A stretch of 41,305 nt of DNA from a virus: the IMG/VR virus record IMGVR_UViG_3300021400_000038, positions 1 to 41,305 of that record; one strand, 5' to 3'. The position numbers and the translations under genes are program-made. Below are positions 5,201-29,887 of this stretch, piece by piece. The notes under the pieces were generated by a model. It was not told the DNA's origin and did no database searches. It saw nothing but the letters and a program-made list of their open reading frames with translations. Every line of letters starts with the position of its first letter. Within the stretch, counting starts at the first letter, position 1.

Positions 5201-8200
5201 CAGGATATGGAGATATTACGGTTGTGTTTGGAAAGGAAACTGTTGATCCGAGTAAAGACTACCGAAACAAGGTTTATCAAAGGGATGCCTGGACTCCGAC
5301 GACACCGTTGGTTGAAGTCAAACTCAACGAACAAAAAGTGCAAAATGCTGAAAGCAAATTGCGTCAGTCAGTAGAAGAGGTTGGCGTTTTTGGCGATGAT
5401 ATTTCAAGGTTTTTTGATCAGTTCAGAAACAACTCCGGAGAATATGTGATTTCCGACTATGATTTTGACGCAAATAATCTTGCGAACAAAGCATTGAACA
5501 ATGCAGGGATGATGGCTGCGTATTTATCTGAAAAAGGTGAAAGGATTTCCCCTGTCTACAAAGATAAAGTGTATTTTGTTGGAAATATCGTTATGACAAG
5601 AGATGAACTCCTTTCCGTGGCAGAAAAGATCGGTGTCAATAAGGACAACATCAAAGTATTTCAAAACGCTTACGATGAATCAACTCCGGAAGAATCTGAA
5701 CTTTACAAAAAAGCAAAAAATGAAATAAAAAGATTCTACGAAGAAAAAATGCAAAAGAAATATGAAAAATTTGGAATTGATAAAAAAGGCATCAAAGAAA
5801 TTGATGTTGGATTCCATGAGTTTGTAGATTTTGCAGATGGTCTTTTCAGAGAATATCGCAACGGCGAGCAAAAAGAATACGACCGATACGAAACAGCGGA
5901 TGCCCTTAAAAATCGAATAACGGATCGAATCGATTTTGAAAACTGGATAATGAACGAACTAACCGATCTCGAAGAACAACGCGGCATTAGAAATGATCGA
6001 GATATTTTTACATCATCCGGAAATCGTAGAAACTTTGATCAATTACACGATTCTTATAATATTCAGAATATTATCAAAAATATGCTGAAAGGAACGCAAG
6101 TTGGAAAAGGATCTTTTCTTGGTCAAAATGCAAGTAGCCTTGCTGCTCGCCTATCCGATGAATTTGATAGCATTAAAAGCATAAAAGAAGCAAGCGGTTT
6201 ACTTTCCGACATTTCAGAAGAACAATATAAAGAAGCGACTGACAAAGCCTATGACATGATCAAGGAAGTCGTCGCCGAAATTGAAGCAGGTAAAGCATCC
6301 GAATTTAGCGATTTTATGACAAGGCAAAATGACATAATGGAAATGGTCGGTGAATGTGCGTTGGTTCGACCATTAACAGCGAAAGGAATTTTGGAATCTT
6401 GGAAGAAACAAATTCGCGGTTACGAAAGTTTAGGCTATCAATTCGATTTGAATACTGCAAAAAAATTACTTGACCTGTTTTCCGTTTTACAAGAATTGCC
6501 AACAAGATACTTTGAGGCAAAACCGCGTCGTGCTGTAACTTTTGACGAAATCAAAATGGTGTTGCTTTCGGCTGATACTTCCGATAAACTAATCAACGCT
6601 TTGGAAGAAAAAAATATCCCTTATGAGATTTACGGAAGCACGGATGAAGAACGCTCGTCTGTGTTGCAGGGGATGGATGATATTCGGTTCTCCCGCGCTC
6701 CGCAGACTGACACCGAGCAATTCAAGCGTTGGTTCGGTGATAGCAAGGTCGTAAACGAGGACGGAACGCCGAAGGTCATGTATCACGGAACAAAAGGCGA
6801 CTTTACCGTGTTTGACAGATCCCGATCCGGGGAGAACTACGGCGGGTACAATGCCGCCGGTGGAGGCTTTGACTTTACGGACAGCGAAAGACGCGCAAGA
6901 CTTTGGGGTGCAAAGGCAAAGGGAACAGGCCCGGTTCGAGTAATCCCAGTTTACCTGAAAGCAGAAAAAACTTTCTATTCCTATAATGGTGCGGTTGATC
7001 CCGCGCTTGAAGCAATTCTGCCAGAAGACCTTACTGAAAAAGAGCGTACGGATGCCATGAGCAATGGGGCAACATTCCACAAAGTTGTAAGCGAAAGTGG
7101 GATTGATTTTGCAAAAGAAATTCAAAAGTTTGGTTATGACTCCTATGCCATGTATCCGGGTGATGAGAATATCGCTGTCTATTCTCCCACGCAGATCAAA
7201 TCCGCCACCGACAACATCGGCACCTTTGATCCTTCAAATCCTGATATTCGGTTCTCCCGCGGTCTGAATGCCCGCGTTGCGGCGAACAACACCGGCGAGC
7301 ACGTGTTCTCCAAAAAGGTGGCAAAAGCCGCTATCGAAACCATTATGGAGTCCAACCTCGTGTTCGGGGACGAGTATTCCACCCTGCGCGGCACCATTCG
7401 CGGCAAGGGCAGGATCATTGACGAACTGTTCTACAAACTGAACAGAACGCAAAACAAGGACTATCAGCGCGCCGTGGCGAACAGCATTGCCGACCAGATC
7501 ATTGACAGCACGGTGCTGACCGAAACCTATTCTGCGTTTGCCGAGCAGGACGCCGCGAACATCGAACAGGCAAAGCGCATTGCCGAGATGATGAGCGGTT
7601 ACCGCCACGGGATCAAGTTCAAGAACATTGAAGGCGACGTCAAGTACGCAAAGGATGATCGGTGGGCAGGGTACAAACTCCAATGGGCGGCGAAAGAAGG
7701 CGACCCGATCGCCATTTCCGCGGATCAACTTGTCGATGCGTTTGACGAGATCGGTGTTAAGATCGACGCTGTGAACGACGCTGAAATCTTCATGGAAGCA
7801 ATGCGGCTTTATGAGAACGCGCGCGAAACGATCAACAACGCGGTCTATAAGGTCAAACTGTCCGAGTACGGCTCCGAGGAAGAACTTGCCCGGCTGAAAA
7901 AGACCATCTCCGACGAGATCATGTCGGTGTTCGAGAACGGCGGCGAGCGGAGCAAATTCAGCAAGATGGTTTCCAGGTACACCGACCAGATCAAGTTCAT
8001 GCGCGAGATGTGGAAGGTGTCGAAGAAGGTCAGCGAGATCAAACTGGAAGGCAAACGGTTCGCATCGGATACCAGAAGCCCGCAACTGAACGCCGCAACC
8101 TCTCTGCTGAAAGGCATGACGAGAGGTTCCAACCTGATCCCCGGCCGGGCGCGTGAAGTCTGCCGGAACCTTGCCGCATGGTATTCGCCGGAAAACAATC

Positions 8201-11200
8201 TGTTCAAGGCCGCCGAAGGCCAGACGGACGAGAAGGGCGAGGAGATCAAGACAAACAGATTTTTCAATCCGCAGATCCGCGAGATGATGGAAACCATTGG
8301 GAACGGAGAAGGCGGGCTGACCGCCGCGGAGATCACCGACCTGTCCCATATCATGGACTTCATGGCGAACTTTGCCAAGACCTACAAGCGCGTTTTCCAG
8401 AACGGACGGTACGTGGACGCAGATACCATTGTGGAAGCGGACATCTCGCTCGCAAGAAGGGCAAAGCACGGTTACGCCAGAAACGCTGTCGTCCGCTTTG
8501 TTCAAAAGACGGCGGAGGACTACGGGATGTTTGTGTTCGATCCCGCAACGGTTGCGAGAATGGCTGACGGCTACCGCAACGGGTTCTTCACGCACTTGCA
8601 CGAAGAGATGCGCGAGGCGGCTCTCCAAATGGCGGCGGTAAGATACGAACTGCAAACCGCGCAAAGCGAGTTCTACAAAGAGCATAAGGGCTACGCTCCC
8701 GAAAAGCGCATGGTGAAAGTCCGCGGCGTGGAAATGCCCGCCGATTTTGCCATCTCGCTCTACATGACCGCAAAGCGCAAGCAGTCCTGGCTCGGTCTTG
8801 TCCAGTCCGGCTATCGTTTGTTCCTGGAAGACGGCGAGGTGAGCGCAAAGGCCCTCGGAGAAAAGGATGTAGATTATTCCGACGAACAGTTGGCGGACAT
8901 CGTAAAAGGGTTCCGCTCCGAGATCGACCGAGTGCTGACGGATACCGACCGCGCGTATATCGCAACGGTAGAGGGCGTTCTGAAACGCGCCGGTGAGTTG
9001 AAGATGGAGCGCGACATCCAGCGCATGGGCTTTACGAACGCGACCGAGGACTACTACTACCCGATCCTGCGCGCACACATGGCAAAGAATTTCGACGCTA
9101 ACCTTACGCTTGGGAAGTCGGGATACTTTGATACGGTCACCAACCTCTCCATGAACAAGGATACGGTGAAAAACAATGCTGAACTCGGCATCCAGTCTGT
9201 CAACCAGGTTATCTCCCGCCATATTGACCAGACCGCCATGTATTATGGGCTTTCCAATATGGTGGACAACTTCAATATGCTTTCCAACCTGAACCTTTCC
9301 GACAATCCCGGCAAGCCGGAAACGATGTTGAGAACGGCAAATGAGTCGATCTTTGGAAAGAAGGCAATGCAATACTTCCAAAAGATGCTGAAAGACCTGG
9401 AAGGGGTTTACTACGCAGACCCATCGGAGAAAAGGGGAATCCGTCTGATTGACAAACTGCGGTCGAACGCCGCTGTCGCCGCGATTGCCGCAAACCCGAA
9501 AGTCATTGCCACGCAGTTCTCCTCGCTGTTTGCCGGTACCGCGATCCTCTCCCCGCGCGATCTTGCAAAGGGAATTACGCTCACGAAGGTCGGCAAGTAT
9601 TCCGATGTGGACAAGTACAGCGAAGTCGCCCGTCTGCGTAACGCGAACCTGGAAGCCGCCCGCGCGGAAACGATCACCGATAAGGTCGGGAAGATCGGCG
9701 AGTTCGGAATGCGCCCGGTTGCCGCGACAGACCGCCTCGTGGTGCAAATCGAGTTTGGTGCTTGTCAAGCCTATGTTGAAAGAACGCAGGGGCTTGCCAT
9801 CGGTACCGAGGAAAACCTGGTAGCCGCGGGGAAACTGCTTAACCGCGTGATCAATGAGACGCAGCAGGGAGCGAGCCTGACCGAGAGATCGGCAATGGCG
9901 CGTTCCAGCAACCCGATCTACAAAGGACTTGCAATGTTCCGCAACGACGCGGTCAAGCAGATCGGGCGCGTGATCGACGGCTTCGGAGAACTCGGCGCGA
10001 TCAAAGAGGACCTGCGGACGGAAACGGACTCCGCAAAGATCGAAGAACTCAAAGGACGGCAGAAAACCGTTCGCCGGAAGACGGCAAAGGCGGTCGGCGC
10101 GCTCGTCGGTGCGTCCATGTATCAGGCGTTGATCGGATTGCTCTTTGCCGCGTTCCTCAACCGCTTGAAGGACAAAGACGACGATGAGATTGCCCGCGAC
10201 GTGGTTGTGGACAGCGTTGCCGGTATGTTTACGGGACTTCCGATCATCAGCCAGTCGATCGAGTTCTTCACCGACGGTTACGGCGTTGAAGATTTTACGA
10301 TCTCCTCTTTCAACGACTTGCTGCAATCCACGCAGGACATGGGGAAGGTTATCGGCGGAAAGGCAACGGAAGGCGAGGTCAAGAGCGCGATCCGCGGCGC
10401 GATCTACTCCGGCGGGAAACTGCTTGGCATTCCTACCCGTAACGCCTACAACTACTTCTACGGTACGGTCAACACCATCAACGAGTATGCGGGCTATCAG
10501 GTTCACGGACTGCTCTATTCCGACAACTACAAGTCCGAACTCTACAAGGCACTCAACGACGGGAACACAGACCGCGCGCAAATGCTCGGAAGCCTGCTTG
10601 TTGACTCTTCCTTCGGCGGGTACTCCAAAGCGACAAAGGACGCGATCAAGCCACTGGTCGCCGCCGGATACACCGTTCTCCCGCGCACCGTTGGCGACAG
10701 CATCACCTATGACGGGCAGGAATACAAACTGACCTCCCGGCAAAAGGCGCGGTTCCAGAAGGTGTACGGACAGGCAAGCGCGGCGGTTCAGAAGGTGGTC
10801 GCCCTGCAATCCTATCGGAAACTCTCTGATGAAGTCAAGGCAAAGACCATCAAGCGCATCTATGATATGTACTACAACCTTGCGATTGATGATCTGCTCG
10901 GAACGGACACCGAGGACAAGACCGTTCTGTTCTCCTACGCCATCGACCCGGACAAACTCGCGCTGATCGTTGCGCAGGCGCAGTCCTTGCAGGCGGACAC
11001 CGACAAAAACGGAAACGCGATTGCCGGTTCCAAAAAGCAGAAGGTCGTTGCGTATATCAGCGGACTGAAACTGACCGCCGCGCAGAAGTTTATGATCATG
11101 GGGTATCTCGGATACCGAAACGCGAAAGGAGAGGAGCAGGTCAAAGCCTACATCAACAGGCTCGGCGCGCTTTCCAAAGCCGAAAAGAAAACGCTCTTTG

Positions 11201-11223
11201 AATATAGCGGCTATGCGGCATAA
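2254..11223 (+). CDS. Giant 2,989-aa multi-module polyvalent-type protein. Probable packaged or ejected virion effector and structural protein.
   Basis: Uninterrupted 8,970-nt ORF after AAGGAG-N6-ATG. Gly/Ala-rich N-terminus. Four [AVI]RFS[RL] linkers at codons 719, 928, 1478 and 1666. An ART-like module. TM-like segment AVGALVGASMYQALIGLLFAAFL near the C-terminus. Confidence 0.9.
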   Translation: MATNKKKQENDLSIEDYLAALKEGNSDLNGQQEQVVTPPMAQVLPTVQATIPDHLTPTPLMTEEEKARARDALVRQLRPIANAIGVPLDNLLYGYMSRAEGIGDALANITGIFGNDDYKRKLQDFVAVDSTKDMFGGVPEAPFKSQFLQGVIQSIGGMGLDAVANVVAPGAGLASLGVGAAGKATEEAYNDGADYGRGTLYGIAQGATEVATEKLTGGMLDAVYGRGLLDGVTKSIARNTVGRAAKNMIEEGAEEVLSELASPLEKAIYKGGDALSEYGTGDYWKGVALAGAAGAVTSGIVGGATGQISNSRTAAELTNDAVTNIQKRATKDANGKLTAKGEAGLTAEIKADLEAAQKYLSKMSDSKRADFFAKNTGASAIFTEDGKIRPEFARKTWGGQSAAETANGAQAQNAGLSEGQKRYVPVNARYDGERATNAVKALQDALDKQGKGETAEIYSGELSSEQEETYAVAKRIVNNLNQTTGDDMALVVVGGENDFNALNEKNGNAILISEKTLAKTHGAVDALAKILFEEATHSTQSRNAIGQYTSAWYAALVHELATGNSATMEAITARLLADGNGYGFTQEMLEGLESKLDSKESMTAKEQELLDEIGAQTVGEILGGNKEIVEKYASNKNAAEKILGVFGKIKKALSRATNKTARAERARVERVEGMLLNALAEKGFTYQNGKVISARPPEEKENTAEAGENEAGENDEAVRFSRNVSLSEQIDQLLDGTFNSENTHIMVDNHTPSIFLEAGLSDKPILMAANKAKTAMGIEVKGKNLHEVSAETLKQLPKLLEKPVMMMDSTQKGRAVVFVNAKDASGNPVLCAIQIDGHGNYNDVEIDSNIVLSVYGKDVNPIGYIERAVDEGRMVYWNKKMSQELFETPGLQLPNNLKQLDSNTIIHKFGENVNPKNEKSSEENSGVRFSLSIGNDTVSGQVEETKNLVALHNLSEDKLLKVLDLGGFPMPSIAVTKPSIPHTGYGDITVVFGKETVDPSKDYRNKVYQRDAWTPTTPLVEVKLNEQKVQNAESKLRQSVEEVGVFGDDISRFFDQFRNNSGEYVISDYDFDANNLANKALNNAGMMAAYLSEKGERISPVYKDKVYFVGNIVMTRDELLSVAEKIGVNKDNIKVFQNAYDESTPEESELYKKAKNEIKRFYEEKMQKKYEKFGIDKKGIKEIDVGFHEFVDFADGLFREYRNGEQKEYDRYETADALKNRITDRIDFENWIMNELTDLEEQRGIRNDRDIFTSSGNRRNFDQLHDSYNIQNIIKNMLKGTQVGKGSFLGQNASSLAARLSDEFDSIKSIKEASGLLSDISEEQYKEATDKAYDMIKEVVAEIEAGKASEFSDFMTRQNDIMEMVGECALVRPLTAKGILESWKKQIRGYESLGYQFDLNTAKKLLDLFSVLQELPTRYFEAKPRRAVTFDEIKMVLLSADTSDKLINALEEKNIPYEIYGSTDEERSSVLQGMDDIRFSRAPQTDTEQFKRWFGDSKVVNEDGTPKVMYHGTKGDFTVFDRSRSGENYGGYNAAGGGFDFTDSERRARLWGAKAKGTGPVRVIPVYLKAEKTFYSYNGAVDPALEAILPEDLTEKERTDAMSNGATFHKVVSESGIDFAKEIQKFGYDSYAMYPGDENIAVYSPTQIKSATDNIGTFDPSNPDIRFSRGLNARVAANNTGEHVFSKKVAKAAIETIMESNLVFGDEYSTLRGTIRGKGRIIDELFYKLNRTQNKDYQRAVANSIADQIIDSTVLTETYSAFAEQDAANIEQAKRIAEMMSGYRHGIKFKNIEGDVKYAKDDRWAGYKLQWAAKEGDPIAISADQLVDAFDEIGVKIDAVNDAEIFMEAMRLYENARETINNAVYKVKLSEYGSEEELARLKKTISDEIMSVFENGGERSKFSKMVSRYTDQIKFMREMWKVSKKVSEIKLEGKRFASDTRSPQLNAATSLLKGMTRGSNLIPGRAREVCRNLAAWYSPENNLFKAAEGQTDEKGEEIKTNRFFNPQIREMMETIGNGEGGLTAAEITDLSHIMDFMANFAKTYKRVFQNGRYVDADTIVEADISLARRAKHGYARNAVVRFVQKTAEDYGMFVFDPATVARMADGYRNGFFTHLHEEMREAALQMAAVRYELQTAQSEFYKEHKGYAPEKRMVKVRGVEMPADFAISLYMTAKRKQSWLGLVQSGYRLFLEDGEVSAKALGEKDVDYSDEQLADIVKGFRSEIDRVLTDTDRAYIATVEGVLKRAGELKMERDIQRMGFTNATEDYYYPILRAHMAKNFDANLTLGKSGYFDTVTNLSMNKDTVKNNAELGIQSVNQVISRHIDQTAMYYGLSNMVDNFNMLSNLNLSDNPGKPETMLRTANESIFGKKAMQYFQKMLKDLEGVYYADPSEKRGIRLIDKLRSNAAVAAIAANPKVIATQFSSLFAGTAILSPRDLAKGITLTKVGKYSDVDKYSEVARLRNANLEAARAETITDKVGKIGEFGMRPVAATDRLVVQIEFGACQAYVERTQGLAIGTEENLVAAGKLLNRVINETQQGASLTERSAMARSSNPIYKGLAMFRNDAVKQIGRVIDGFGELGAIKEDLRTETDSAKIEELKGRQKTVRRKTAKAVGALVGASMYQALIGLLFAAFLNRLKDKDDDEIARDVVVDSVAGMFTGLPIISQSIEFFTDGYGVEDFTISSFNDLLQSTQDMGKVIGGKATEGEVKSAIRGAIYSGGKLLGIPTRNAYNYFYGTVNTINEYAGYQVHGLLYSDNYKSELYKALNDGNTDRAQMLGSLLVDSSFGGYSKATKDAIKPLVAAGYTVLPRTVGDSITYDGQEYKLTSRQKARFQKVYGQASAAVQKVVALQSYRKLSDEVKAKTIKRIYDMYYNLAIDDLLGTDTEDKTVLFSYAIDPDKLALIVAQAQSLQADTDKNGNAIAGSKKQKVVAYISGLKLTAAQKFMIMGYLGYRNAKGEEQVKAYINRLGALSKAEKKTLFEYSGYAA
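6678..6697 (+). repeat. 20-nt direct repeat tgatattcggttctcccgcg (encodes D-I-R-F-S-R), left boundary of the ART-like module.
   Basis: Identical 20-mer recurs at 7242-7261, exactly 564 nt (188 codons) downstream. Confidence 0.95.
6694..7248 (+). other. ADP-ribosyltransferase-like module (ART-PolyVal-like) inside the giant ORF, aa 1481-1665.
   Basis: FKRWFGDSKVVNEDGTPKVMYHGT..DFTVFD, then GGGFDFT, then DENIAVYSPTQIKSATDNIGTF. This fits the H / aromatic-x-T / E arrangement I recall for this family. No search was run. Confidence 0.5.
7242..7261 (+). repeat. 20-nt direct repeat tgatattcggttctcccgcg, right boundary of the ART-like module.
   Basis: Identical to 6678-6697. Confidence 0.95.
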
Positions 11224-11234
11224 AGAGGTGTCCT

Positions 11235-11456
11235 ATGAAAAAGGACTATTCTTTCCGATGCCGTGACGATTGGCTGTATCTGATCGAGCAATGGATTTTG
11301 AACGAGCGGCACCGAATGATCATCAAACGCAGGATCATAGACGGCGTAACGCTGGAAGAACTTGCGGGAGAATTTGATTATTCGGTGTCGAATATAAAGA
11401 ACATTGTGTATGCCTGTGAAAAGAAACTCATCGAAGAAGCAATGAAATTGAAATAA
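11235..11456 (+). CDS. Small DNA-binding protein of 73 aa with a sigma-70 region-4-like HTH. Possible late-gene regulator.
   Basis: AGAGGTG RBS. ...IIDGVTLEELAGEFDYSVSNIKNIVYACEKKL resembles region-4 / UPF0122-type HTH proteins. Confidence 0.55.
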   Translation: MKKDYSFRCRDDWLYLIEQWILNERHRMIIKRRIIDGVTLEELAGEFDYSVSNIKNIVYACEKKLIEEAMKLK

Positions 11457-11461
11457 GCCTT

Positions 11462-11489
11462 GGGGCTGTCATTTGACAGCCCCTTTTTT
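11462..11489 (+). terminator. Rho-independent terminator ending the late operon.
   Basis: 9-bp stem GGGGCTGTC/GACAGCCCC, 4-nt loop, followed by TTTTTT. Confidence 0.85.
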
Positions 11490-11516
11490 ATGTCCAAAAA
11501 CTGTCCAAAAGATAGC

Positions 11517-11548
11517 CGGAACCTGACTTTTGAAAGGTTCCGTTTTTT
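11517..11548 (+). terminator. Second, tandem rho-independent terminator.
   Basis: 8-bp stem CGGAACCT/AGGTTCCG, 10-nt loop, followed by TTTTTT. Confidence 0.7.
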
Positions 11549-11564
11549 GGTATCATGGTATCAG
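11548..11564 (+). promoter_or_regulatory. Candidate extended -10 promoter(s) for the 11589-14344 module.
   Basis: TGGTATCAT immediately followed by TGGTATCAG (duplicated TGnTATCA- motif). The TTGAAA upstream has only 15-nt spacing. Confidence 0.3.
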
Positions 11565-11588: not shown

Positions 11589-11975
11589 ATGTGGCAAGCA
11601 TACAACCCGAACCCCGTAGGGCGTTCGGTTGGAGATTGTGCCGTCCGCGCGTTGGCAAAGGCGTTGGATACAGATTGGGAAACTGCCTATGCAAAGATCG
11701 CGGCGGCAGGGTTCAATATGGGAGATATGCCGTCGAGCAATTCCGTCTGGGGCGCGGTTCTTCGGCAGAATGGATTTTATCGGGAGAATATTCCTAACGA
11801 ATGCCCTGACTGCTATACCGCCGAAGATTTTTTGAACGATCACCCGAAAGGCACGTATGTTCTTTCGTTCGATGGACACGCAGCCACTGCGATAGATGGC
11901 ATCCTTTACGACAGTTGGGACTCCAGCGGGGAAATACCCCAATTTTATTGGTATAGAAAGGAAGAAGAAAGATGA
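11589..11975 (+). CDS. 128-aa protein with a possible papain-fold cysteine-peptidase signature (Cys-His-Asp). Function uncertain.
   Basis: GDC(17)AVRALA early, then FDGH(96)AATAIDG..YDSWD late. First gene after the tandem terminators. Confidence 0.6.
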   Translation: MWQAYNPNPVGRSVGDCAVRALAKALDTDWETAYAKIAAAGFNMGDMPSSNSVWGAVLRQNGFYRENIPNECPDCYTAEDFLNDHPKGTYVLSFDGHAATAIDGILYDSWDSSGEIPQFYWYRKEEER

Positions 11976-12316
11976 ACGGTTACTATCAGCAGCCACAGCC
12001 ATTCCAGAACGGAGGCATCGTCCGTGTTCGCAACGAGGCAGAAGCACGGGACTATCCTGTCGCACCGGGCAACAGCGTGATCTTAATTGACAACAGCGTC
12101 CCGTACCTCTACGTCAAGACCATGTCCTACTCCCAACTCGATCCGCCTCGCTTTGAGAAGTTCCGGCTTGTCCGGGAAGAACAGCCCGCACCGCAGGCTC
12201 CGGCACAGCCCGTTGAGTATGTCACGCGGGCGGACTTCGAGGCACTCAAAGCAGAGATCGAGAAACTGAAAGCCCCTGTAAAGGAGGAGCAGACAGATGA
12301 ACAACGCACCGTTTAA
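11972..12316 (+). CDS. Hypothetical protein, 114 aa. Pro/Gln-rich linker and a C-terminal coiled-coil-like tail.
   Basis: ATGA start/stop overlap with the upstream gene, indicating operon packing. Confidence 0.6.
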   Translation: MNGYYQQPQPFQNGGIVRVRNEAEARDYPVAPGNSVILIDNSVPYLYVKTMSYSQLDPPRFEKFRLVREEQPAPQAPAQPVEYVTRADFEALKAEIEKLKAPVKEEQTDEQRTV

Positions 12317-12545
12317 CATCAACGCCATTATGGGACAATTCCAACAGTTCATGCAGAACCCCGCCGGGTTCCTTGCCCAGCATCGACTGAACATTCCCCA
12401 GGGGTTGCAGAACAACCCGGCAGGGGCGATCCAGTATCTGCTCAACAACGGGGCCATGTCCCAGGATCAGTACAACCAACTGCGGCAGATGGCAGAGCAG
12501 GTTCAGCAAAACCCGCAGTTCATGCAGATGTTCGGTCGCAGATAA
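12297..12545 (+). CDS. Hypothetical Gln/Asn-rich 82-aa protein with repeated QNP/NNP motifs.
   Basis: AGGAGGAG-N7-ATG. FQQFMQNPAGF...LQNNPAGA...QQNPQFMQMF. Confidence 0.6.
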   Translation: MNNAPFNINAIMGQFQQFMQNPAGFLAQHRLNIPQGLQNNPAGAIQYLLNNGAMSQDQYNQLRQMAEQVQQNPQFMQMFGRR

Positions 12546-12611
12546 TTTGGTACCAACTTTCCGGCGCGCAGAAAGTTTGTATAAATATTCAAAACAAAGG
12601 AGTACAAAACC

Positions 12612-13415
12612 ATGAATGAAAATGGCACTTCTACCGTGATGCCGGTCGCTCCCGTTGGCTATAACTACGGTTATGGCAATGGCGGTGGGTTTGGCGGTTT
12701 TGGCGGCGATTGGGGCGCATTGATTGTTCTGTTCCTGTTTGCATCTATGTTTGGTGGCGGCATGGGTATGGGCGGTTTCGGTGGCTTTGGGGGCGGTATG
12801 TTCCCCTGGCTCCTCGCCTCAAACGCCAACAACCAGAACGCAACGCAGGCGGGATTTGATCAGGCGGCTACCGCTGGAACGCTCGCCGGTATTCAGAACT
12901 CTATCACGACCGGGTTCTCCAGTGCAGAGGTTGCGGCTTGCAACAGAGCGATGGCTGATCTCAACCGCTCGTTCGACGCGCAGACCGCGACCACACAGGC
13001 TCTCAACGGCATTCAGAGCCAACTCGCCCAATGTTGCTGCGACAACCGGGCGGCGGTTGCGGATCTGAAATACACCGTTGCGACCGAGGCTTGCGCTGAC
13101 CGCAACGCGATCAGCAACGCTCTCCGCGATGTTCTCACCGCGAACACCGCTTCCACCCAGCGCATTCTCGACCAACTCTGCAACGACAAAATCGACGCAA
13201 AGAACGAGAAGATCGCCGATCTGGAACGGCAACTCACGATGGCGAACCTCGCCGCGTCGCAGGGCGCGCAGACCGCCCGCATTCTTGCGGACAACGCCGC
13301 TCAGACTTCCGCTCTGGAACAGTACCTCGCTCCCACGCCTCGTCCGGCCTGGATCGTCCAGAACCCGAACTGCTGCCCTCCGAACTACGGCTGCGGCTGT
13401 GGCGGCGTAGCGTAA
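12612..13415 (+). CDS. Gly-rich membrane-anchored protein of 267 aa with a long Ala/Gln-rich helical region and a Cys-rich C-terminus.
   Basis: AAGGAG RBS. GNGGGFGGFGGDWGALIVLFLFASMFGGGMGMGGFGGFGGG. Internal QCCCDN, EACADRN and QLCNDK. C-terminal NPNCCPPNYGCGCGG. Confidence 0.75.
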   Translation: MNENGTSTVMPVAPVGYNYGYGNGGGFGGFGGDWGALIVLFLFASMFGGGMGMGGFGGFGGGMFPWLLASNANNQNATQAGFDQAATAGTLAGIQNSITTGFSSAEVAACNRAMADLNRSFDAQTATTQALNGIQSQLAQCCCDNRAAVADLKYTVATEACADRNAISNALRDVLTANTASTQRILDQLCNDKIDAKNEKIADLERQLTMANLAASQGAQTARILADNAAQTSALEQYLAPTPRPAWIVQNPNCCPPNYGCGCGGVA

Positions 13416-13427
13416 GGAGGGACGATC

Positions 13428-13886
13428 ATGGCGGAATATCTTGCGAACGCTATTCAGGAAGTGGCACTCAACTCGCCCATCCTGTTCACCGCATCCATCC
13501 CTTGCCTTCGCGGGTTTGTTTACCACGAGGACGAAACCGGGATCTTTATTCTGCGTGGGATCGTCAACAATCCTTCCTGCGGCTTTACTCGCTATCGCGT
13601 CACCTTTAACGGCAACATTGCAATTCCCGAAGGCGGAACCGCCGGTCCGATTGCGGTTGCATTGACCGTGAACGGCGAACCGAGATTGACGAGCAGAGCG
13701 ATCATCACGCCTGCGGCGGTCGATGAATACGGCAACGTCACAAGCACCGCGATCATCACCGTTCCCCGCGGATGTTGTTTCAGCCTCTCCGTGCGCTCGG
13801 TTCCGGCTACGACTGACGCGACCGTTGACCCCGCGCCCGTGATCGAGGTGCAGAACGCGAACCTTGTCATTGACAGGGTTTCGTGA
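13428..13886 (+). CDS. 152-aa protein resembling a stand-alone C1q/TNF-like jelly-roll (BclA C-terminal-domain-like).
   Basis: AAGGAGG RBS. The strand pattern GIFILRG...YRVTFNGNIAIP...IAVALTVNGEP...TSTAIITVP...FSLSVRS...ANLVIDRV recalls BclA-C type domains. Recollection only, no search run. Confidence 0.65.
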   Translation: MAEYLANAIQEVALNSPILFTASIPCLRGFVYHEDETGIFILRGIVNNPSCGFTRYRVTFNGNIAIPEGGTAGPIAVALTVNGEPRLTSRAIITPAAVDEYGNVTSTAIITVPRGCCFSLSVRSVPATTDATVDPAPVIEVQNANLVIDRVS

Positions 13887-13903
13887 GGAAGGAGGAAAAA
13901 ACG

Positions 13904-14344
13904 ATGCACACCGAATTTCTTTACAAACTGAAAGAGAAACTCCTGGAAGAGTTGGAAAAATACTCGAAAGGGGAAATGTCAACCTCTACCTTGCAGTACG
14001 TTGACACTCTTTCCCACGCCGCGAAAAACATCTGCAAACTCATTGAGGCAAGCGAGATGGAAGAATACAGCGGAGCCGACGGCGGGTCTTATGATGGAGA
14101 GTCGTATCGGGGTTCCTACGCGAGAGGAATGTCCAGACGCGGCGGCTCGTATGCTATGAGCCGCGCGGATGGTGGCTCGTCTTACAGACGCAGACGGGAC
14201 AGCATGGGCAGATACTCCCGTGAAGGCGGGTACTCCCGGAACGATGAAATGATCTCCGAGTTGCGCGAAATGATGGAAGGCGCTCCCGACGATCGGACGC
14301 GCGAAGACTTCCAACGCCTGATCTCCAAAATGGAGCAGATGTAA
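13904..14344 (+). CDS. 146-aa protein with helical ends and a central Ser/Arg/Tyr/Gly-rich low-complexity region.
   Basis: AGGAGG-N8-ATG at 13904 is preferred over the upstream GTG at 13883. SYDGESYRGSYARGMSRRGGSYAMSRADGGSSYRRRRDSMGRYSREGGYSR. Confidence 0.65.
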   Translation: MHTEFLYKLKEKLLEELEKYSKGEMSTSTLQYVDTLSHAAKNICKLIEASEMEEYSGADGGSYDGESYRGSYARGMSRRGGSYAMSRADGGSSYRRRRDSMGRYSREGGYSRNDEMISELREMMEGAPDDRTREDFQRLISKMEQM

Positions 14345-14360
14345 CCATCCCGAAAGGGGA

Positions 14361-14390
14361 GAGCCGGGGCAATCGTCCCGGCTCTTTTTT
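14361..14390 (+). terminator. Rho-independent terminator ending the accessory module.
   Basis: Stem GAGCCGGG/CCCGGCTC, 8-nt loop, then TTTTTT. Confidence 0.8.
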
Positions 14391-14401
14391 ATGCTCGGCA
14401 C

Positions 14402-14425
14402 ATTAGGCACAAAATTAGGCACAAA
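14402..14425 (+). repeat. Tandem 12-mer ATTAGGCACAAA x2 (candidate integrase arm-type sites, P arm).
   Basis: Read directly. The same 11-mer core recurs at 14609-14630. Confidence 0.8.
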
Positions 14426-14490
14426 TAACCGTGCTAAATCGTTGCGAAACCGTGCTGTTTCTGTGCTTTATTGTGCAAGTCCTACAAGGC

Positions 14491-14539
14491 GGAAACAAAA
14501 ATAAGGGTAAATTTGTGTATATTATACACAAATTTACCC
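14491..14539 (-). terminator. Perfect 17-bp inverted repeat (1-nt centre, 14505-14539) followed on the - strand by TTATTTTTGTTT. Candidate terminator for the tRNA reconstituted after integration.
   Basis: GGGTAAATTTGTGTATA-T-TATACACAAATTTACCC. The - strand downstream sequence is T-rich. It sits 3 nt from the CCA-like end of the putative core. Confidence 0.5.
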
Positions 14540-14608
14540 TTCTGGCGGAGAAGGAGAGAAATTACAGGATTGCCGTTTCAAGGCTTAAACAAGCCTTTTT
14601 TGGTTTTG

Positions 14609-14630
14609 TTAGGCACAAATTAGGCACAAA
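14609..14630 (+). repeat. Tandem 11-mer TTAGGCACAAA x2 (candidate arm-type sites, P' arm).
   Basis: Read directly. Same orientation as the 14402-14425 pair. Confidence 0.8.
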
Positions 14631-14635
14631 GTTTC

Positions 14636-15712
14636 TCAAAAATGCACCGAATTGAGGGCGTTCATCAGCACGATTTCATCGGTCGGCATCATGTGGGAAT
14701 AGGTCTGCAACGTCTGCTGCACGGTGGAGTGTCCGAGGCGTTTTGATACCGCCGTGATCGGAACACCGTGGGAGATCAGCAGGGAAGCGTGGCTGTGCCG
14801 AAGGTCATGCACCCGGATCTCCTGAACGCCCGCTTTCTTTGCGTCCGAATGAAGGTGCCTTCTGATCGCCTCTGTCAGGATCGGGCGGTCGCCGCCGAAC
14901 ACATAGTCCCCGGCGGCAGTCTTTTTGTACTCTTTCAGTTCGTCCACGAGGATGTCAGGCATCGGGATCGTCCGAACGCTGGATTGGTTTTTCGGGGCCG
15001 TGATGGCGAATTGCTCGGCGGTCTTGACCGTCAGGCTCTTATTGATCCGAACGGTCTTTGTGTTCAGGTCAACGTCGCTCCATTGCAGGGCAAGCCCTTC
15101 TCCCCGGCGGCACCCGGTAAAGTAGAGGAAAATATAGAACATCCGATAGACCGCGTCCGGCTCCTGTTCCATGGCCAGGAAAAACTCGCGCGGCTCCCAG
15201 ACCTTCATTTCCTCTTTGCGCTCGGTGTTGCGCGGCGGCTTGATCTTCCGCATGAAGTCCGAGGTTTCGTAGTAGTCCATACCGTAGTAACAGACGGCTT
15301 TCAGCAGGCGGAACAGCCCTATTTTGTAGTCGAACGACAGACCGTTGATGGACTCCAACCATTTCTGGATGACTGCCGGTTTTGCGTCGGCGATCTTGAC
15401 GGTTTCAAAGAATGGGATGATCCGCTTTTCCGCCTTGCTCTTTTCGGTCAGGAAGGACGACTCGCGGTTCCTGCTCTTTTGGTATTCAAGGTATCTTCGC
15501 GTGAGTTCCGCGACCGTTGTCTGGTCCGGCGCGGCTTTCTGCGCTGCCTTGCGTTCCTCGGCGGACTTGATATAGTCCTCATAGGCGAACTGCGCCTCAC
15601 GTTTTGTCTTATAGCCGGACAGCCGTTTCTGGTGGATCTCATTGTCCGCGCCCATTTCCCGGAACCGGCACGACCACAGCCCGGATGCGGCATTCTTTTC
15701 GTAGGATGGCAT
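14636..15712 (-). CDS. int: Tyrosine recombinase / phage integrase.
   Basis: GCRRGEGLAL (Arg I), IRVHDLRHSHASLLI (H-x-x-R box), LGHSTVQQTLQTYSHM (catalytic Tyr). GGAG-N5-ATG at 15712 is preferred over the TTG at 15736. Confidence 0.9.
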   Translation of the reverse strand: MPSYEKNAASGLWSCRFREMGADNEIHQKRLSGYKTKREAQFAYEDYIKSAEERKAAQKAAPDQTTVAELTRRYLEYQKSRNRESSFLTEKSKAEKRIIPFFETVKIADAKPAVIQKWLESINGLSFDYKIGLFRLLKAVCYYGMDYYETSDFMRKIKPPRNTERKEEMKVWEPREFFLAMEQEPDAVYRMFYIFLYFTGCRRGEGLALQWSDVDLNTKTVRINKSLTVKTAEQFAITAPKNQSSVRTIPMPDILVDELKEYKKTAAGDYVFGGDRPILTEAIRRHLHSDAKKAGVQEIRVHDLRHSHASLLISHGVPITAVSKRLGHSTVQQTLQTYSHMMPTDEIVLMNALNSVHF

Positions 15713-15729
15713 TTCTGCTCCGATCTCTA

Positions 15730-15758
15730 TTGACAAAAGAACCTTTTTGTGCTATCAT
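15730..15758 (+). promoter_or_regulatory. Sigma-70-type promoter for the small toxin-like gene.
   Basis: TTGACA (15730-15735), 17-nt spacer, TATCAT (15753-15758). Confidence 0.55.
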
Positions 15759-16114: not shown

Positions 16115-16634
16115 ATTTTAACGCACTTTCTTTTTCCGCTTTTAGGTTTTCTATTCTTTCATACGATGTTTGCATATACCTGTCTAATGAAGAAATACGG
16201 GTGTTATAGGTATTCATAACTTGATTAAGTTGATATTCCAACTCTGAAATTTTCTTCTTTTTGGCTTCAAGAGATTGTTGTGCTTGTAATCTTGTGTCCA
16301 TATATTTTTGATATATCGGCTTATTGTACTCTTGAACATAGTACTGATAATCTGCTTTTGCAACATGAATTTGATCTGAAAAATCTTTTTGAACTGCATC
16401 TCTTTCGATAATTAGTTCGGATCTTTCACGAGACAAGCCATCATAATATCTTTGCTCGTCTGCTATCATGGAATCATATTTTGCAGAAATTTCTGCTTTA
16501 TTATTTGCAGTATTTGACTCGTTTACTGTATTTGGCTCTGTTACATTATTTGACTTGGTTACATTTTTTGAAGAGCAAGATACAAATATAAATGCAATAA
16601 TAAGCAATACAAATAGAATATTTATAGTTTTCAT
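16113..16634 (-). CDS. Lipoprotein of 173 aa, AT-rich moron. Candidate superinfection-exclusion or surface protein.
   Basis: Signal peptide plus lipobox MKTINILFVLLIIAFIFVS-C. Coiled-coil-like mature part. Much lower GC than its surroundings. ATGA overlap with the upstream XRE gene. Confidence 0.8.
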   Translation of the reverse strand: MKTINILFVLLIIAFIFVSCSSKNVTKSNNVTEPNTVNESNTANNKAEISAKYDSMIADEQRYYDGLSRERSELIIERDAVQKDFSDQIHVAKADYQYYVQEYNKPIYQKYMDTRLQAQQSLEAKKKKISELEYQLNQVMNTYNTRISSLDRYMQTSYERIENLKAEKESALK

Positions 16635-16951
16635 TGTTCTATCTCCCTTACAAATTCAATGACCCTCTCCTGCTCGTCCGCGGTCAGCCCGCGGAACAGA
16701 TCGAGCAGGGCTTTTTCTTTTTCGGAAAGTACCACCTTGGGTTCCGCTCCCGGATCGTCCGTGTTGCCCAGAAGATAATCGGCGCTGACACCAAAATAGG
16801 ACGCGATCGCAAGCAGGGAAGAATGGTTTGGCACAGTATTCTTCTTTTCCCAGTAACGAATCTGGTTCTCTCCCATTTTAACATCGGATAAAAATTGCTT
16901 TCTTGTTAAATTTCGTTCTTGCAAAAGAGCGTTTAACCGTTCGATAAACAT
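16631..16951 (-). CDS. XRE-family HTH transcriptional regulator, 106 aa.
   Basis: LTRKQFLSDVKMGENQIRYWEKKNTVPNHSSLLAIASYFGVSADYLLG is a classic Cro/C1-type HTH. GGGAGAAAAA RBS. Confidence 0.85.
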   Translation of the reverse strand: MFIERLNALLQERNLTRKQFLSDVKMGENQIRYWEKKNTVPNHSSLLAIASYFGVSADYLLGNTDDPGAEPKVVLSEKEKALLDLFRGLTADEQERVIEFVREIEQ

Positions 16952-18389: not shown

Positions 18390-18686
18390 ATGGAAATCAA
18401 AGAAAACCAGTTTTACATCGTAAGAGCCAACAGAGCCGGCGTGTTCTTCGGCAAGATCAAAAACGCAAACCACGATTCTGTCACCATGCAGGACGTTCGC
18501 AAACTGTTCTATTGGGACGGTGCTTGCGCGGTTGAAGAACTCGCTCTCAACGGTACGAACAAGCCTGGAAACTGCAAGTTTACGGTAACGATCCCGGAGA
18601 TGGAGATCGCTGATCCGATCCAGATTATTCCCTGCACGGAAAAGGCTGTTGCAAGCATTCAGGCGGTGGAAGTATGGAAGGCGTGA
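18390..18686 (+). CDS. Hypothetical early protein, 98 aa.
   Basis: AAGGAGAAAG RBS. First gene after cro. Confidence 0.6.
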   Translation: MEIKENQFYIVRANRAGVFFGKIKNANHDSVTMQDVRKLFYWDGACAVEELALNGTNKPGNCKFTVTIPEMEIADPIQIIPCTEKAVASIQAVEVWKA

Positions 18687-19396
18687 GTTTAGAGCAGAAA
18701 ATACAGCGGTTCCTTGCTGTTGAGATAGGCTCCGGCGACGGCTACGGCTCCGGCTCCGGCTACGGCTCCGGCTCCGGCTCCGGCGACGGCTCCGGCTCCG
18801 GCTCCGGCGACGGCTCCGGCTCCGGCTCCGGCTACGGCTACGGCGACGGCGACGGCTACGGCTACGGCGACGGCTACGGCTCCGGCTCCGGCTACGGCTA
18901 CGGCTCCGGCTACGGCGACGGCGACGGCTACGGCTTGAAATCCTTTAATGGGTTGAAAGTCCATTCCATTGATCGTATTGAAACCGTTATCCTGTCGGTT
19001 CATTTGAACCTTGCAAAGGGATTCTCCATCGCAGACGATCTCACAACGCATCCTTGCTATATAGCAAAAGGAAATAATCTTTTTGCTCATGGGGAAACTG
19101 CGAAAGCCGCACAAGAGGCTCTTCGAGAAAAGATTTTTGACAATCTGGACGATGACGAGAAACTGGATGCCTTCCGATCCGAGTTTCAGGACTTTGACAG
19201 AAAATATCCCGCAAAAGTCTTTTTCGATTGGCACCATAGGTTGACGGGCAGTTGCGAGTTCGGAAGAAATCAATTTTGCAGGAACCACGGGATCAACCTT
19301 GAAACGGATGAATATTCCGTCCGGGATTTTGTCCGCATCTGCCAAGATGATTACGGCGGGGAGATCATCAAAAAGATATTGGAGGACGAGCCATGA
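18674..19396 (+). CDS. 240-aa protein with a 69-residue (Gly-X)n tract (X = Ser/Tyr/Asp) followed by a globular Cys/His-containing C-terminal domain.
   Basis: GSGDGYGSGSGYGSGSGSGDGSGSGSGDG...GYGDGDGYG, then ...HHRLTGSCEFGRNQFCRNHG. Confidence 0.7.
   Translation: MEGVSLEQKIQRFLAVEIGSGDGYGSGSGYGSGSGSGDGSGSGSGDGSGSGSGYGYGDGDGYGYGDGYGSGSGYGYGSGYGDGDGYGLKSFNGLKVHSIDRIETVILSVHLNLAKGFSIADDLTTHPCYIAKGNNLFAHGETAKAAQEALREKIFDNLDDDEKLDAFRSEFQDFDRKYPAKVFFDWHHRLTGSCEFGRNQFCRNHGINLETDEYSVRDFVRICQDDYGGEIIKKILEDEP
18728..18934 (+). repeat. Hexanucleotide-type tandem repeat GGC-(TCC/TAC/GAC), 207 nt, in frame inside the CDS.
   Basis: Read directly. About 34 GGCNNC units with no spacers. Confidence 0.95.
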
Positions 19397-22896: not shown

Positions 22897-23178
22897 ATGA
22901 CAAACAACTACAATTACAATTTTGATCTCGAAGGTCATTATGTACCTGAATCGGTTAGACGCTTTATAGAGGGGTTTATTCAGCAGTTTATTGCCGATAA
23001 ACGAAAATCCGAAGCGTCAAAGCGTTTCGATAATCCTCGCATTGCAAACACATTGGCGATACAGGATTTTCTTTTCCTGATGCGTGATCGTTACGGCTGT
23101 TACGTCACGATAAATTGGTTATTTGATATAGCCGATTTTAAGGTTACTATTACGTTAAGAAAGGATATTGAACAATGA
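22897..23178 (+). CDS. Hypothetical protein, 93 aa, AT-rich.
   Basis: ORF with an AAAAGGA RBS in the gene chain. Confidence 0.5.
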   Translation: MTNNYNYNFDLEGHYVPESVRRFIEGFIQQFIADKRKSEASKRFDNPRIANTLAIQDFLFLMRDRYGCYVTINWLFDIADFKVTITLRKDIEQ

Positions 23179-23393
23179 GCAACAAACAAACCCAATGCGA
23201 GATGATCCTCGCGTACATGGAAGAAGTGGGGAGCATTACCCCGGCGGAAGCAATGGCGGAGTTCGGCTGTATGAGGCTGGCATCGCGCATTTGCGAGATC
23301 AAGAGAACGCACAAGATCAAGACCGAGCGCGTTTATACCGTAAACAGATATGGAAAGCGCGTACCCTTCGCGCGGTACTCGTTGGAGGCGTGA
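23175..23393 (+). CDS. Small winged-helix / HTH_39-like DNA-binding protein, 72 aa.
   Basis: QCEMILAYMEEVGSITPAEAMAEFGCMRLASRICEIKR pattern. Confidence 0.5.
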   Translation: MSNKQTQCEMILAYMEEVGSITPAEAMAEFGCMRLASRICEIKRTHKIKTERVYTVNRYGKRVPFARYSLEA

Positions 23394-29674: not shown

Positions 29675-29887
29675 ATGTTTTGGAGAGCCGATGTTGAAAC
29701 CAATGAGTTGAAACGCGAGAACGAACGGCTGAAAGCGGAGTTGGAAGAAGCAAGAGCCGAGATCGAACGGCTGAACAAGCAGATTGCGGAAAAGGACGTT
29801 GACAGCAGGACGTTCATTGACGAATACATCAACGGTCCCGAAGATGACAGAACGGAGGTGCAGAGGTGGGCAACGAGCAACAGATGA
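29675..29887 (+). CDS. Small coiled-coil protein, 70 aa.
   Basis: GAGGAGGAACGAGG RBS. ELKRENERLKAELEEARAEIERLNKQIAEK. Confidence 0.5.
   Translation: MFWRADVETNELKRENERLKAELEEARAEIERLNKQIAEKDVDSRTFIDEYINGPEDDRTEVQRWATSNR

Follow-up and report, generated by a model that had tools for sequence, protein, structure and literature searches.

A conserved six-gene cassette of gut and rumen phages, possibly encoding a membrane-tethered complex

Here, we describe a cassette of six core genes, usually accompanied by a gene for a small helix-turn-helix (HTH) protein, in a phage sequence of 41,305 nucleotides (nt; IMG/VR record IMGVR_UViG_3300021400_000038, positions 1 to 41,305; this whole stretch is referred to below as the window). 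The existence of the conserved cassette, with the HTH gene as its usual addition, is near certain. As to its products, we tentatively suggest that the cassette might be an autonomous, late-expressed accessory operon which builds a membrane-tethered rod-and-head complex acting at the envelope of the infected cell, a reading that we regard as possible rather than probable. The initial annotation of the window, made from the letters alone, had singled out five tightly packed genes of unusual composition next to the attachment site. All five open reading frames (ORFs) were confirmed on the + strand at the coordinates and with the compositions given there, and they do form a single unit beside the attachment site, but that unit is larger than had been proposed, as pep128 and, usually, sig73 also belong to it:

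11235–11456, + strand: sig73, 73-residue HTH protein of the sigma-70 region 4 type, starting 12 nt after the giant late gene
11589–11975, + strand: pep128, 128-residue Cys/His protein (phrog_3754), first gene of the operon
11972–12316, + strand: q114, 114 residues (phrog_21718)
12297–12545, + strand: qn82, 82-residue Q/N/M-rich helical protein (phrog_22984)
12612–13415, + strand: gc267, 267 residues (phrog_16490)
13428–13886, + strand: jr152, 152-residue all-beta protein (phrog_20016)
13904–14344, + strand: syr146, 146 residues

The elements of the cassette follow one another in the order HTH gene, hairpin, pep128, q114, qn82, gc267, jr152, syr146, hairpin, and the core genes are closely packed, with an ATGA overlap between pep128 and q114, a 20-nt overlap between q114 and qn82, and then gaps of 66, 12 and 17 nt. 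The last gene was annotated at first from the GTG at 13883 (13883–14344); given that a ribosome-binding site, GGAAGGAGG, precedes the ATG at 13904 and that homologues aligning with 95% coverage are of similar length (for example, 146 residues), this ATG is the most likely start.

The case for a cassette rests on its conservation. Related loci were collected from species-representative genomes and IMG/VR with jr152 as bait, and the 78 loci with enough flanking sequence were scored with family hidden Markov models; having been picked through close relatives of jr152, these loci represent one large clade. Genes for pep128, q114, gc267, jr152 and syr146 were found in all 78 loci and qn82 in 75, in the same order throughout, and a 73-residue HTH gene of the Sigma70_r4 type lies directly upstream in 56 of the 78. 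Thus, the five families flagged initially, whose co-occurrence and synteny had been put forward as a check, are present in 75–78 of 78 loci in a fixed order. The abundance of homologues, the constant gene order and the high conservation of amino acids against nearly saturated third codon positions jointly indicate that all five ORFs are genuine genes. Neither chance ORFs nor an antisense frame can account for them, given that conservation tracks the frames of the + strand; the long antisense ORF at 12819–13982 is a by-product of the G+C content. The most conserved member is jr152, with a median pairwise identity of 76% compared with 28–53% for the adjacent proteins of those loci; 59 alignment columns are invariant among 30 sequences, and the cysteines C26, C116 and C117 are invariant too. 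Identity at the third positions of identical codons is only 0.41, so that the high amino-acid identity of jr152 reflects long divergence under strong purifying selection and not recent transfer.

Apart from coiled-coil or low-complexity noise, sequence and profile searches of Pfam, NCBIfam, PADLOC and PDB returned no match for any of the six core proteins; in PADLOC, this holds for all cassette proteins at E ≤ 1. Five of the six (pep128, q114, qn82, gc267 and jr152) fall into PHROGs families of unknown function. A literature search found no description of the cassette, and the paper on Butyrivibrio phage Ceridwen, one of the carriers, lists its cassette genes as hypothetical. The earlier statement that no phage system of this composition had been described is therefore upheld, and profile searches placed none of the five flagged proteins in a well-characterised family.

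The two largest core proteins suggest what the cassette might build. The AlphaFold2 model of jr152 comprises nine beta strands and one short helix at low confidence (predicted local distance difference test score, pLDDT, 53; predicted template modelling score 0.50). Its Foldseek neighbours are solely jelly-rolls, none of them significant (E between 1e-3 and 5e-2, TM-scores of 0.3–0.5, from the pLDDT-53 model), and include C1q, the tumour necrosis factor (TNF) ligands 4-1BBL and OX40L, Pgp3, BC2L-C, viral capsid proteins, Ena3A, and phage BclA/collagen-repeat proteins. Many of these neighbours (C1q, the TNF ligands, Pgp3 and the phage BclA/collagen-repeat proteins) are heads on trimeric stalks. 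Searches of Pfam, NCBIfam and PDB gave no sequence or profile match of jr152 to BclA-C, C1q or TNF, even at E ≤ 1–10. Thus, the suggestion of the initial annotation that the 152-residue protein resembles C1q and the BclA C-terminal domain agrees with the only structural signal obtained, but this signal lies below significance and has no counterpart in sequence; judging from the model, a C1q/TNF-type jelly-roll is the candidate fold of jr152.

The N-terminus of gc267 consists of a conserved MPVAP motif followed by Gly/aromatic (GGFGG) runs around the sole strongly hydrophobic stretch, residues 37–51; within residues 1–75, only E3 and D33 are charged and there is no positive charge. A helical region of about 165 residues follows, with the motifs QCCCDN, EACADRN and QLCNDK, then a Pro-rich hinge and a tail of the NPNCC..GCGCG type with the NPNCCPPNYGCGCGG end. 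The cysteines CCC141–143, C190, C255, C261 and C263 are retained in 85–89 of 90 loci, and C161 in 74 of 90. In the AlphaFold2 model, which is of low confidence as well (pLDDT 52), residues 35–46 and 74–239 form helices; the low confidence of both models is attributable to the retrievable homologues being too similar to one another. Hydrophobic periodicity in the helical region is stronger at 3.6–4.0 than at 3.5. A profile search against 1.84 billion representatives recovered 2,158 clusters at 50% identity, the best 150 of which contain proteins of about 140–360 residues with no fused domain hinting at function. Longer homologues (P0037; L002 9062–9982; L114 3695–4537; L117 3737–4333) carry extra units of about 11 residues, GF(G/A)xVQxxLCx, before the CCC motif, a spacing that suggests a hendecad-like repeat rather than heptads.

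The first core protein, pep128, matches its PHROG with an E value of 6e-30. Residues D16, C17, H97, D108 and W110 are invariant in 23 sequences, the C72-P-D-C75 motif is nearly so, and the cysteines are retained in 85–89 of 90 loci. The pattern of D16-C17, H97 and D108 would be compatible with a catalytic triad, and CPDC would equally fit a redox or metal site, making pep128 a candidate thiol peptidase or other thiol enzyme. Neither Pfam nor NCBIfam returned a peptidase match, a profile comparison with PDB gave nothing relevant, and hhalign comparison with a C39-like phage lysin gave a probability of 1.4%. Genes for pep128 also stand alone in phages of Bacillus, Geobacillus, Pseudomonas and Prevotella, where they are sometimes annotated as 'putative peptidase'; the neighbours of such lone genes in Bacillus phage Kirov and Geobacillus phage GBK2 gave no functional clue.

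The remaining three proteins, q114, qn82 and syr146, all join low-complexity segments to conserved helical or beta segments. The least conserved member, q114 (median identity 28%), has a Q/P/Y-rich N-terminus, a conserved central segment, a P/Q linker and a C-terminal amphipathic helix. In qn82 (Q 21%, N 15%), there is a core of the form ..NP....IQ.LLN.G..SQ.QYNQ..., and sub-threshold Pfam hits were seen to TMP_2 in 8 of 43 members (best E 1.5e-4; 17–19 bits in the members shown, with a cut-off of 30) and to STI1-HOP_DP in 5 of 43 (best E 0.015). These resemblances to STI1 or tape-measure segments recur among members but stay below threshold, and hhalign comparison with a 998-residue late protein of locus L002, a tape-measure candidate, and with the giant protein of the window did not confirm them (probabilities below 1%). 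In syr146, helical ends surround a core of 60 residues that is rich in S, R, Y and G (12 S, 12 R, 13 G and 7 Y) and has the motif RRDSMGRYS; PHROGs, Pfam, NCBIfam and PDB gave no match. A CotG-like identity of syr146 is not supported: there is no family match, and the core is low in complexity without being a tandem repeat, lying between two conserved helical domains.

The cassette appears to carry its own control elements. Sig73 is the only protein of the unit with a curated match, to Pfam Sigma70_r4 (28.7 bits against a cut-off of 24.1, E 9e-7); consisting of region 4 alone, it is a DNA-binding protein and not a complete sigma factor, and it is the probable regulator of the cassette. The following elements surround the core genes:

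11462–11556, + strand: control region, read from the sequence
11462–11489, + strand: first hairpin with T-run, also found by a hairpin scan
11491–11499 and 11502–11510: two TGTCCAAAA direct repeats, 11 nt apart
11517–11542: second hairpin, with a T-run at 11543–11548 that overlaps an extended -10-like TGGTATCAT at 11548–11556
14360–14391, + strand: closing hairpin AGAGCCGGG..CCCGGCTCT with T-run, ending the operon; read from the sequence and not listed by the consensus scan

The start of pep128 lies 33 nt past the TGGTATCAT box. In the 45 nt before pep128, a hairpin with a T-run is present in about 40 of 95 loci; if the limit is widened to 170 nt, the number rises to 63. Many of these loci have a -10-like box (TGnTAnAAT) after the T-run; in six loci the loop of the hairpin is TTCATT. 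Rfam gave no match for this conserved hairpin. In some loci, a pair of direct repeats with a spacing of about 11 nt lies upstream; exact direct repeats were present in few loci only, too sparse to show co-variation with the sequence type of the HTH protein. In L114 and L117, the diverged cassette likewise follows a small HTH gene.

An endolysin gene is the immediate upstream neighbour of the cassette in 7 of 10 loci sampled at random, its product being of the M15, Amidase_2, ELLD, glucosaminidase, CHAP or peptidoglycan-binding type, and downstream lie an integrase gene or host genes, the latter beginning about 0.7 kb after the cassette in prophage copies. The orientation is always that of the late genes. 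In L004 (6946–7143) and L005 (4375–4572), a gene for a 65-residue protein with the Acb2/Tad1 hairpin, of the anti-CBASS/Thoeris sponge type, is located between holin-region genes and the M15 endolysin gene, just upstream of the cassette, indicating that the lysin junction also gathers counter-defence genes. Some features recall a moron, namely, hairpins flanking the unit, a -10-like box, as a putative promoter, in many loci, carriage by unrelated backbones, and differing genome positions. Reading these elements together, the cassette would be an insulated accessory unit, the regulator of which is made along with the late genes.

The searches with gc267 and jr152 each recovered at least about 8,000 homologues, and that with syr146 2,495. 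Carriers of the cassette are labelled as phages and prophages of Ruminococcus, Oscillospiraceae, Lachnospiraceae and other Clostridia from gut and rumen; the Paludibacteraceae and Spirochaetaceae genome bins among them are probably mis-binned phage contigs. The phages concerned have unrelated structural modules, as exemplified by the podovirus-like window, Ceridwen and a prophage of Vescimonas fastidiosa MM35. In Ceridwen, the cassette follows a glucosaminidase endolysin gene and contains an extra 264-residue gene between the homologues of jr152 and syr146. This phage plaques on Butyrivibrio fibrisolvens and was placed by its authors in Siphoviridae; they observed only lytic growth and regard it as virulent. 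In the Vescimonas prophage (L118), which also has tail genes, the cassette comes after holin and amidase genes. The expected pep128 slot of L118 (5077–6024) is occupied by about 950 nt with no annotated gene and with stops in the translated frame, the other five genes being intact, so that the thiol enzyme may be dispensable.

More divergent versions, present in phages from other gut samples, extend the range. In bajarodcaudo virus 2, all members of the set, among them an evident syr146-like protein, are encoded between the portal gene and that of the major capsid protein. A variant in bajarodcaudo virus 5, located after holin and lysin genes, consists of an HTH gene, q114-like and qn82-like genes, a gc267 homologue, a gene for a small Cys-rich beta protein and, as the last gene, one for a 332-residue protein of different make-up. 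Dulem virus 40 carries a shorter, Bacteroides-type variant after the holin gene, with a small HTH gene and a gc267 homologue followed by three genes whose products are, in turn, a small beta protein containing Cys, a protein with a coiled coil at its C-terminus, and one rich in R, D, Y and G. Bacteroides phage C3_41T2LP encodes, among recombination genes, a clear gc267 homologue (E 1e-21), after which come a Cys-bearing beta protein, a C-terminal coiled-coil protein and an R/D/Y-rich protein, a partial look-alike of the cassette, and an N4-like Vibrio phage has only the gc267 homologue (E 6.5e-11). Comparison by hhalign of jr152 with the Cys-rich beta proteins at the same position in the diverged cassettes L113, L115 and L117 gave probabilities below 7%, so that homology is unsupported, and the only Pfam match around the members of diverged cassettes was to DUF7841, in a neighbouring gene. 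In two Bacteroides-type variants (L113 5916–6793 and L115 5966–6789), the DUF7841 protein and a small metallopeptidase are encoded after the cassette; the L113 copy of the latter is annotated as PolyVal-type and the L115 copy contains an HExxH-like motif on direct reading. This metallopeptidase may be an analogue of pep128, the Cys/His enzyme of the Clostridia-type cassette.

How could these parts work together? We propose that sig73 is read with the late operon and that its product either activates the -10-type promoter of the cassette or enables polymerase to read through the hairpin into it, in which case the cassette would be expressed at the end of the lytic cycle. Direct reading of the N-termini found no signal peptide in any of the five soluble proteins and only gc267 has a membrane segment; the products would thus come together inside the cell, at the cytoplasmic side of the membrane. 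There, the hydrophobic, Gly-rich N-terminus would anchor gc267, which would project as a helical rod of about 165 residues, some 25 nm if straight, whose Cys-rich tail would use the conserved Cys clusters to dock the C1q/TNF-like head formed by jr152, presumably trimeric. For strict anaerobes, we favour metal bridging by these clusters over disulfides. The Q/N-rich and S/R/Y/G-rich proteins could serve as chaperones, adaptors or scaffold, and pep128 could process or cross-link a component. Late in infection, the complex might act on the cell envelope, in the control or completion of lysis, or in blocking superinfection and the loss of progeny onto debris. We consider this architecture plausible and the biological role a guess. 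Several observations speak for the proposal: the fixed order of the genes between hairpins; their carriage by unrelated phages; the single hydrophobic peak and long predicted helix of gc267 and the jelly-roll neighbours of jr152; the strong constraint on jr152; the conservation of Cys clusters in gc267, jr152 and pep128; the purely lytic growth observed for Ceridwen; the location of the HTH gene directly behind late genes, namely, the giant gene in the window and, at a distance of 29 nt, the endolysin gene in L002; and the position of the cassette immediately after endolysins of several catalytic types.

Several considerations weigh on the other side. The architecture rests on low-confidence models (pLDDT 52–53), and all Foldseek matches are below significance. 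The periodicity of gc267 does not demonstrate a canonical heptad coiled coil, and its helical region could instead be a bundle or an amphipathic helix lying on a surface; judging by its sequence, the hydrophobic segment, with no flanking positive charges, has an unpredictable topology. The slot behind the endolysin is a generic one that unrelated accessory genes occupy too. The link from the HTH gene to the promoter is one that we infer, and exact upstream direct repeats occur in few loci. Given that pep128 exists alone in unrelated phages, it may be an independent passenger. Furthermore, a hairpin followed by a promoter of its own in front of the cassette would fit expression from a prophage as well.

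Among the alternatives, the one that survives best, although we consider it somewhat unlikely, is a virion-associated module, in which either gc267 and jr152 would be an accessory fibre or decoration or the set as a whole would be internal proteins ejected with the DNA, with the low-complexity proteins acting as assembly chaperones and pep128 as a maturation peptidase. Virion proteins would be expected to lack signal peptides, as is the case here, and the anchor-shaft-knob layout recalls viral fibres; indeed, the PDB and BFVD neighbours of jr152 include tail-fibre and receptor-binding domains, and a gc267 homologue in a Bacteroides phage is annotated as 'outer capsid protein/viral fiber'. The constant late-gene orientation, the presence in a phage reported as virulent, the location between portal and major capsid genes in bajarodcaudo virus 2, the position in the window after a polyvalent MuF protein of the packaged type, and the sub-threshold likeness of qn82 to a tape-measure segment are all in line with this explanation, although that likeness failed in direct profile comparison. 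However, a part that docks onto the virion would be expected to co-vary with it, whereas jr152 keeps an identity of about 76% even where the carriers have unrelated heads and tails. Moreover, the unit is insulated by hairpins and has its own regulator, and its usual place is after the lysis genes rather than among the structural ones.

The same uniformity of jr152 irrespective of phage type would fit a conserved host target, as in a cytoplasmic counter-defence or host-takeover role, with jr152 binding or sequestering some conserved molecule or machine of the host, the low-complexity proteins forming a condensate or scaffold, and gc267 serving as the membrane tether. Compositions rich in Q/N, G/F and S/Y/R/G are known from condensate-forming proteins. 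The cassette occurs both in a phage reported as virulent and in temperate ones, and its lysis-adjacent slot holds the Acb2/Tad1-hairpin gene in L004 and L005. Yet none of the proteins resembles a known defence or anti-defence family, six co-conserved genes are a large set for a sponge, and coupling to the late operon would be the wrong timing for counter-defence, which is usually early. Hence, we regard this role as rather unlikely.

Proximity to lysis genes in most carriers raises the question of whether the cassette itself could lyse the cell, with gc267 as a holin-like pore former equipped with a large regulatory domain, pep128 as a cysteine peptidase of the wall, and the other proteins as regulators of timing. 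In favour of this, Pfam and PHROGs searches of about 35 of the larger ORFs of the window detected no recognisable endolysin or holin, and the Gly-rich membrane segment of gc267, followed by a large Cys-bearing domain, resembles the layout of the T4 holin T or an i-spanin. However, gc267 has no match to a Pfam holin family, only to PHROGs of unknown function, and shows one hydrophobic peak with no charged flanks that would point to a holin or spanin; the Clostridia that host the main clade have no outer membrane and do not need a spanin; pep128 lacks a wall-binding domain and any likeness to CHAP, NlpC/P60 or C39; and copies in head modules or early regions are remote from lysis genes. The initial annotation had suggested a non-canonical lysis or membrane-disruption cassette; a link with lysis would be in line with the endolysin genes directly upstream in 7 of 10 sampled loci, but with most carriers already encoding a holin and an endolysin there, and with some copies elsewhere, a self-sufficient lysis cassette is decidedly unlikely.

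By analogy only, the products might act outside the cell after release by lysis, either as a cross-linkable protective matrix comparable to an occlusion body or as a C1q/TNF-like lectin or ligand directed at competitors or the animal host. The probable very late expression and the absence of signal peptides would be compatible with such release; richness in Cys, Tyr and Gln, in combination with a Cys/His enzyme, characterises cross-linked matrices; and an extremely conserved jelly-roll with conserved cysteines recalls polyhedrin-type proteins and lectins such as BC2L-C. These are likenesses with no homology behind them, the membrane tether of gc267 would be left unexplained, and disulfide or dityrosine chemistry is doubtful in the anoxic gut, so that we hold this alternative to be improbable to the same degree as a lysis cassette.

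A lysogenic-conversion module that remodels the spore or cell surface, as first envisaged from the position beside the attachment site and from the resemblance in composition to CotG-like, Cys-rich and BclA-like coat proteins, and as also favoured by the hairpins on both sides and by the BclA-type and Ena3A proteins among the weak jelly-roll matches, is very improbable: the likeness to coat proteins proved to be compositional, with no spore-coat or exosporium family match in Pfam or NCBIfam, secretion and sorting signals are absent, the regulator gene lies within the late operon, one carrier is reported as virulent, and the cassette is found in a Butyrivibrio phage and a Vescimonas prophage, with the gc267 family extending to Bacteroides and Vibrio phages, none of whose hosts is known to form spores.

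Returning to the membrane-tethered complex, its most far-reaching version would be a novel structure, a Cys- or metal-bridged array of membrane-anchored rods and heads, organised by the prion-like Q/N-rich and S/R/Y/G-rich proteins and turned on by a dedicated regulator in the final phase of infection, which would shield or organise the progeny at lysis or display or release a C1q/TNF-like ligand. We consider this a doubtful prospect; if true, it would represent a new functional module of tailed phages beside lysis, packaging and morphogenesis. We found no known system of the same composition; the cassette may nonetheless be an unfamiliar version of an ordinary task. In either case, six genes are co-inherited in thousands of gut and rumen phage lineages, and one of their products is as conserved as a core cellular protein while having no known family or solved relative. 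The function, once known, would allow a considerable part of the gut viral 'dark matter' to be annotated and could bring to light a stage of infection in anaerobic Firmicutes not displayed by model phages, whereas an ordinary virion accessory or lysis helper would still be a useful annotation, if not a surprising one. Cultured systems for such work exist, namely, Ceridwen with its host DSM 3071 and the lysogen Vescimonas fastidiosa MM35.

The window represents a complete phage genome, circularly closed and about 41.2 kb long, with an exact 107-nt terminal repeat (bases 1–107 equal 41199–41305). A search for close relatives lacking the cassette, for a presence/absence comparison, turned up only one near-identical contig, the IMG/VR contig L119, which is 99% identical to the window. 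The presence of an SU10-type adaptor and no tape measure makes the phage look podovirus-like. Its main landmarks are:

2254–11223: polyvalent protein of 2,989 residues with MuF_C, PBECR5 nuclease and ART-PolyVal ADP-ribosyltransferase domains, directly upstream of sig73
14399–15736: attachment/integration region, with TTAGGCACAAA-type repeats, a palindrome and the integrase gene
14636–15736, − strand: tyrosine integrase (Pfam Phage_integrase, E 3e-24)
16631–16951, − strand: repressor-like gene
27806–29662: terminase
29866–31857: portal
32776–33627: major head protein

The cassette is thus located between the polyvalent gene, more than half of whose product has no domain assignment, and the integrase gene. 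Its proximity to the attachment site, as described in the initial annotation, is corroborated by this integrase and by the host genes that follow prophage copies; the setting between tail genes and the phage attachment site (attP) is not, given that the polyvalent gene, rather than tail or lysis genes, precedes the cassette here. Copies of the TTAGGCACAAA-type repeat (family D15), possible arm sites of the integrase, flank 14399–14643 at 14399–14426 and 14616–14643, with a perfect 39-nt palindrome between them at 14503–14541, and this segment is the probable attP region. Before the giant gene, there are two candidate membrane proteins, one encoded by an ORF with multiple hydrophobic segments that runs across the genome join (about 41187 to 402) and begins MTKKLLKLY, the other of 285 residues with hydrophobic ends (402–1259). 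Another low-complexity protein of this phage is encoded in the early region (18674–19396, + strand); the first 90 of its 240 residues are a (G-S/D/Y)n run, the underlying repeats (18704–18977) comprise 15 in-register copies at a 12-nt spacing, and it has no family match except for a weak one to a PHROG of unknown function. In the replication region, a protein with a PAPS-reductase domain (23168–24265), possibly a DNA-modification enzyme, is encoded beside YqaJ/RecT recombination genes.

Comparison with known systems brings out both the parallels and the novelty of the cassette. The spore-coat set of Bacillus subtilis (CotG, the Cys-rich CotY/Z, the Gln-rich GerQ, the transglutaminase Tgl and the 74-residue HTH regulator GerE) parallels it in combining S/R/Y-rich, Cys-rich and Gln-rich proteins with a small Cys/His enzyme and an HTH protein of about 73 residues, but the cassette has no match to it in Pfam or NCBIfam and resides in a phage late-gene context. 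The membrane organisers p16.7 and p1 of phi29, which act inside the infected cell, pair a coiled-coil protein with a membrane anchor at the N-terminus; they differ from the cassette products in being much smaller, early and DNA-binding, with no Cys clusters and no jelly-roll partner. Among phage lysis proteins, T4 holin T (with its antiholins) and the i-spanin Rz carry a large domain with cysteines behind a sole N-terminal membrane segment, and gc267 is alike in its single N-terminal hydrophobic segment, large helical domain, conserved cysteines and lysis-gene neighbours; however, no homology was detected, canonical holins are already encoded upstream, and the charged flanks typical of anchors are missing.

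Similar in overall shape are Bacillus BclA, complement C1q, the TNF ligands and chlamydial Pgp3, the sole type of structural neighbour of the jr152 model, which have in common with the proposed complex that an anchor is joined to a long rod and a small jelly-roll head (about 150 residues); a stalk with a C1q/TNF-like head is also found in the knobbed tail needles of Sf6-type phages. In the cassette, however, rod and head would be two polypeptides and the rod alpha-helical and Cys-rich instead of collagen-like, sequence or profile likeness is absent, the structural matches are sub-significant and come from a low-confidence model, and q114, qn82, syr146 and pep128 have no counterpart. In terms of genome organisation, the cassette resembles the morons and lysogenic-conversion cassettes of temperate Firmicute phages, which occupy the same junction between lysin gene and attachment site, are likewise insulated by hairpins and equipped with a promoter-like box, and are shared by unrelated phages. 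The cassette described here departs from them in size, with a regulator and six co-conserved genes where they have one or two, in having that regulator tied to the late operon, and in being found elsewhere in genomes, too, and in a phage reported as virulent.

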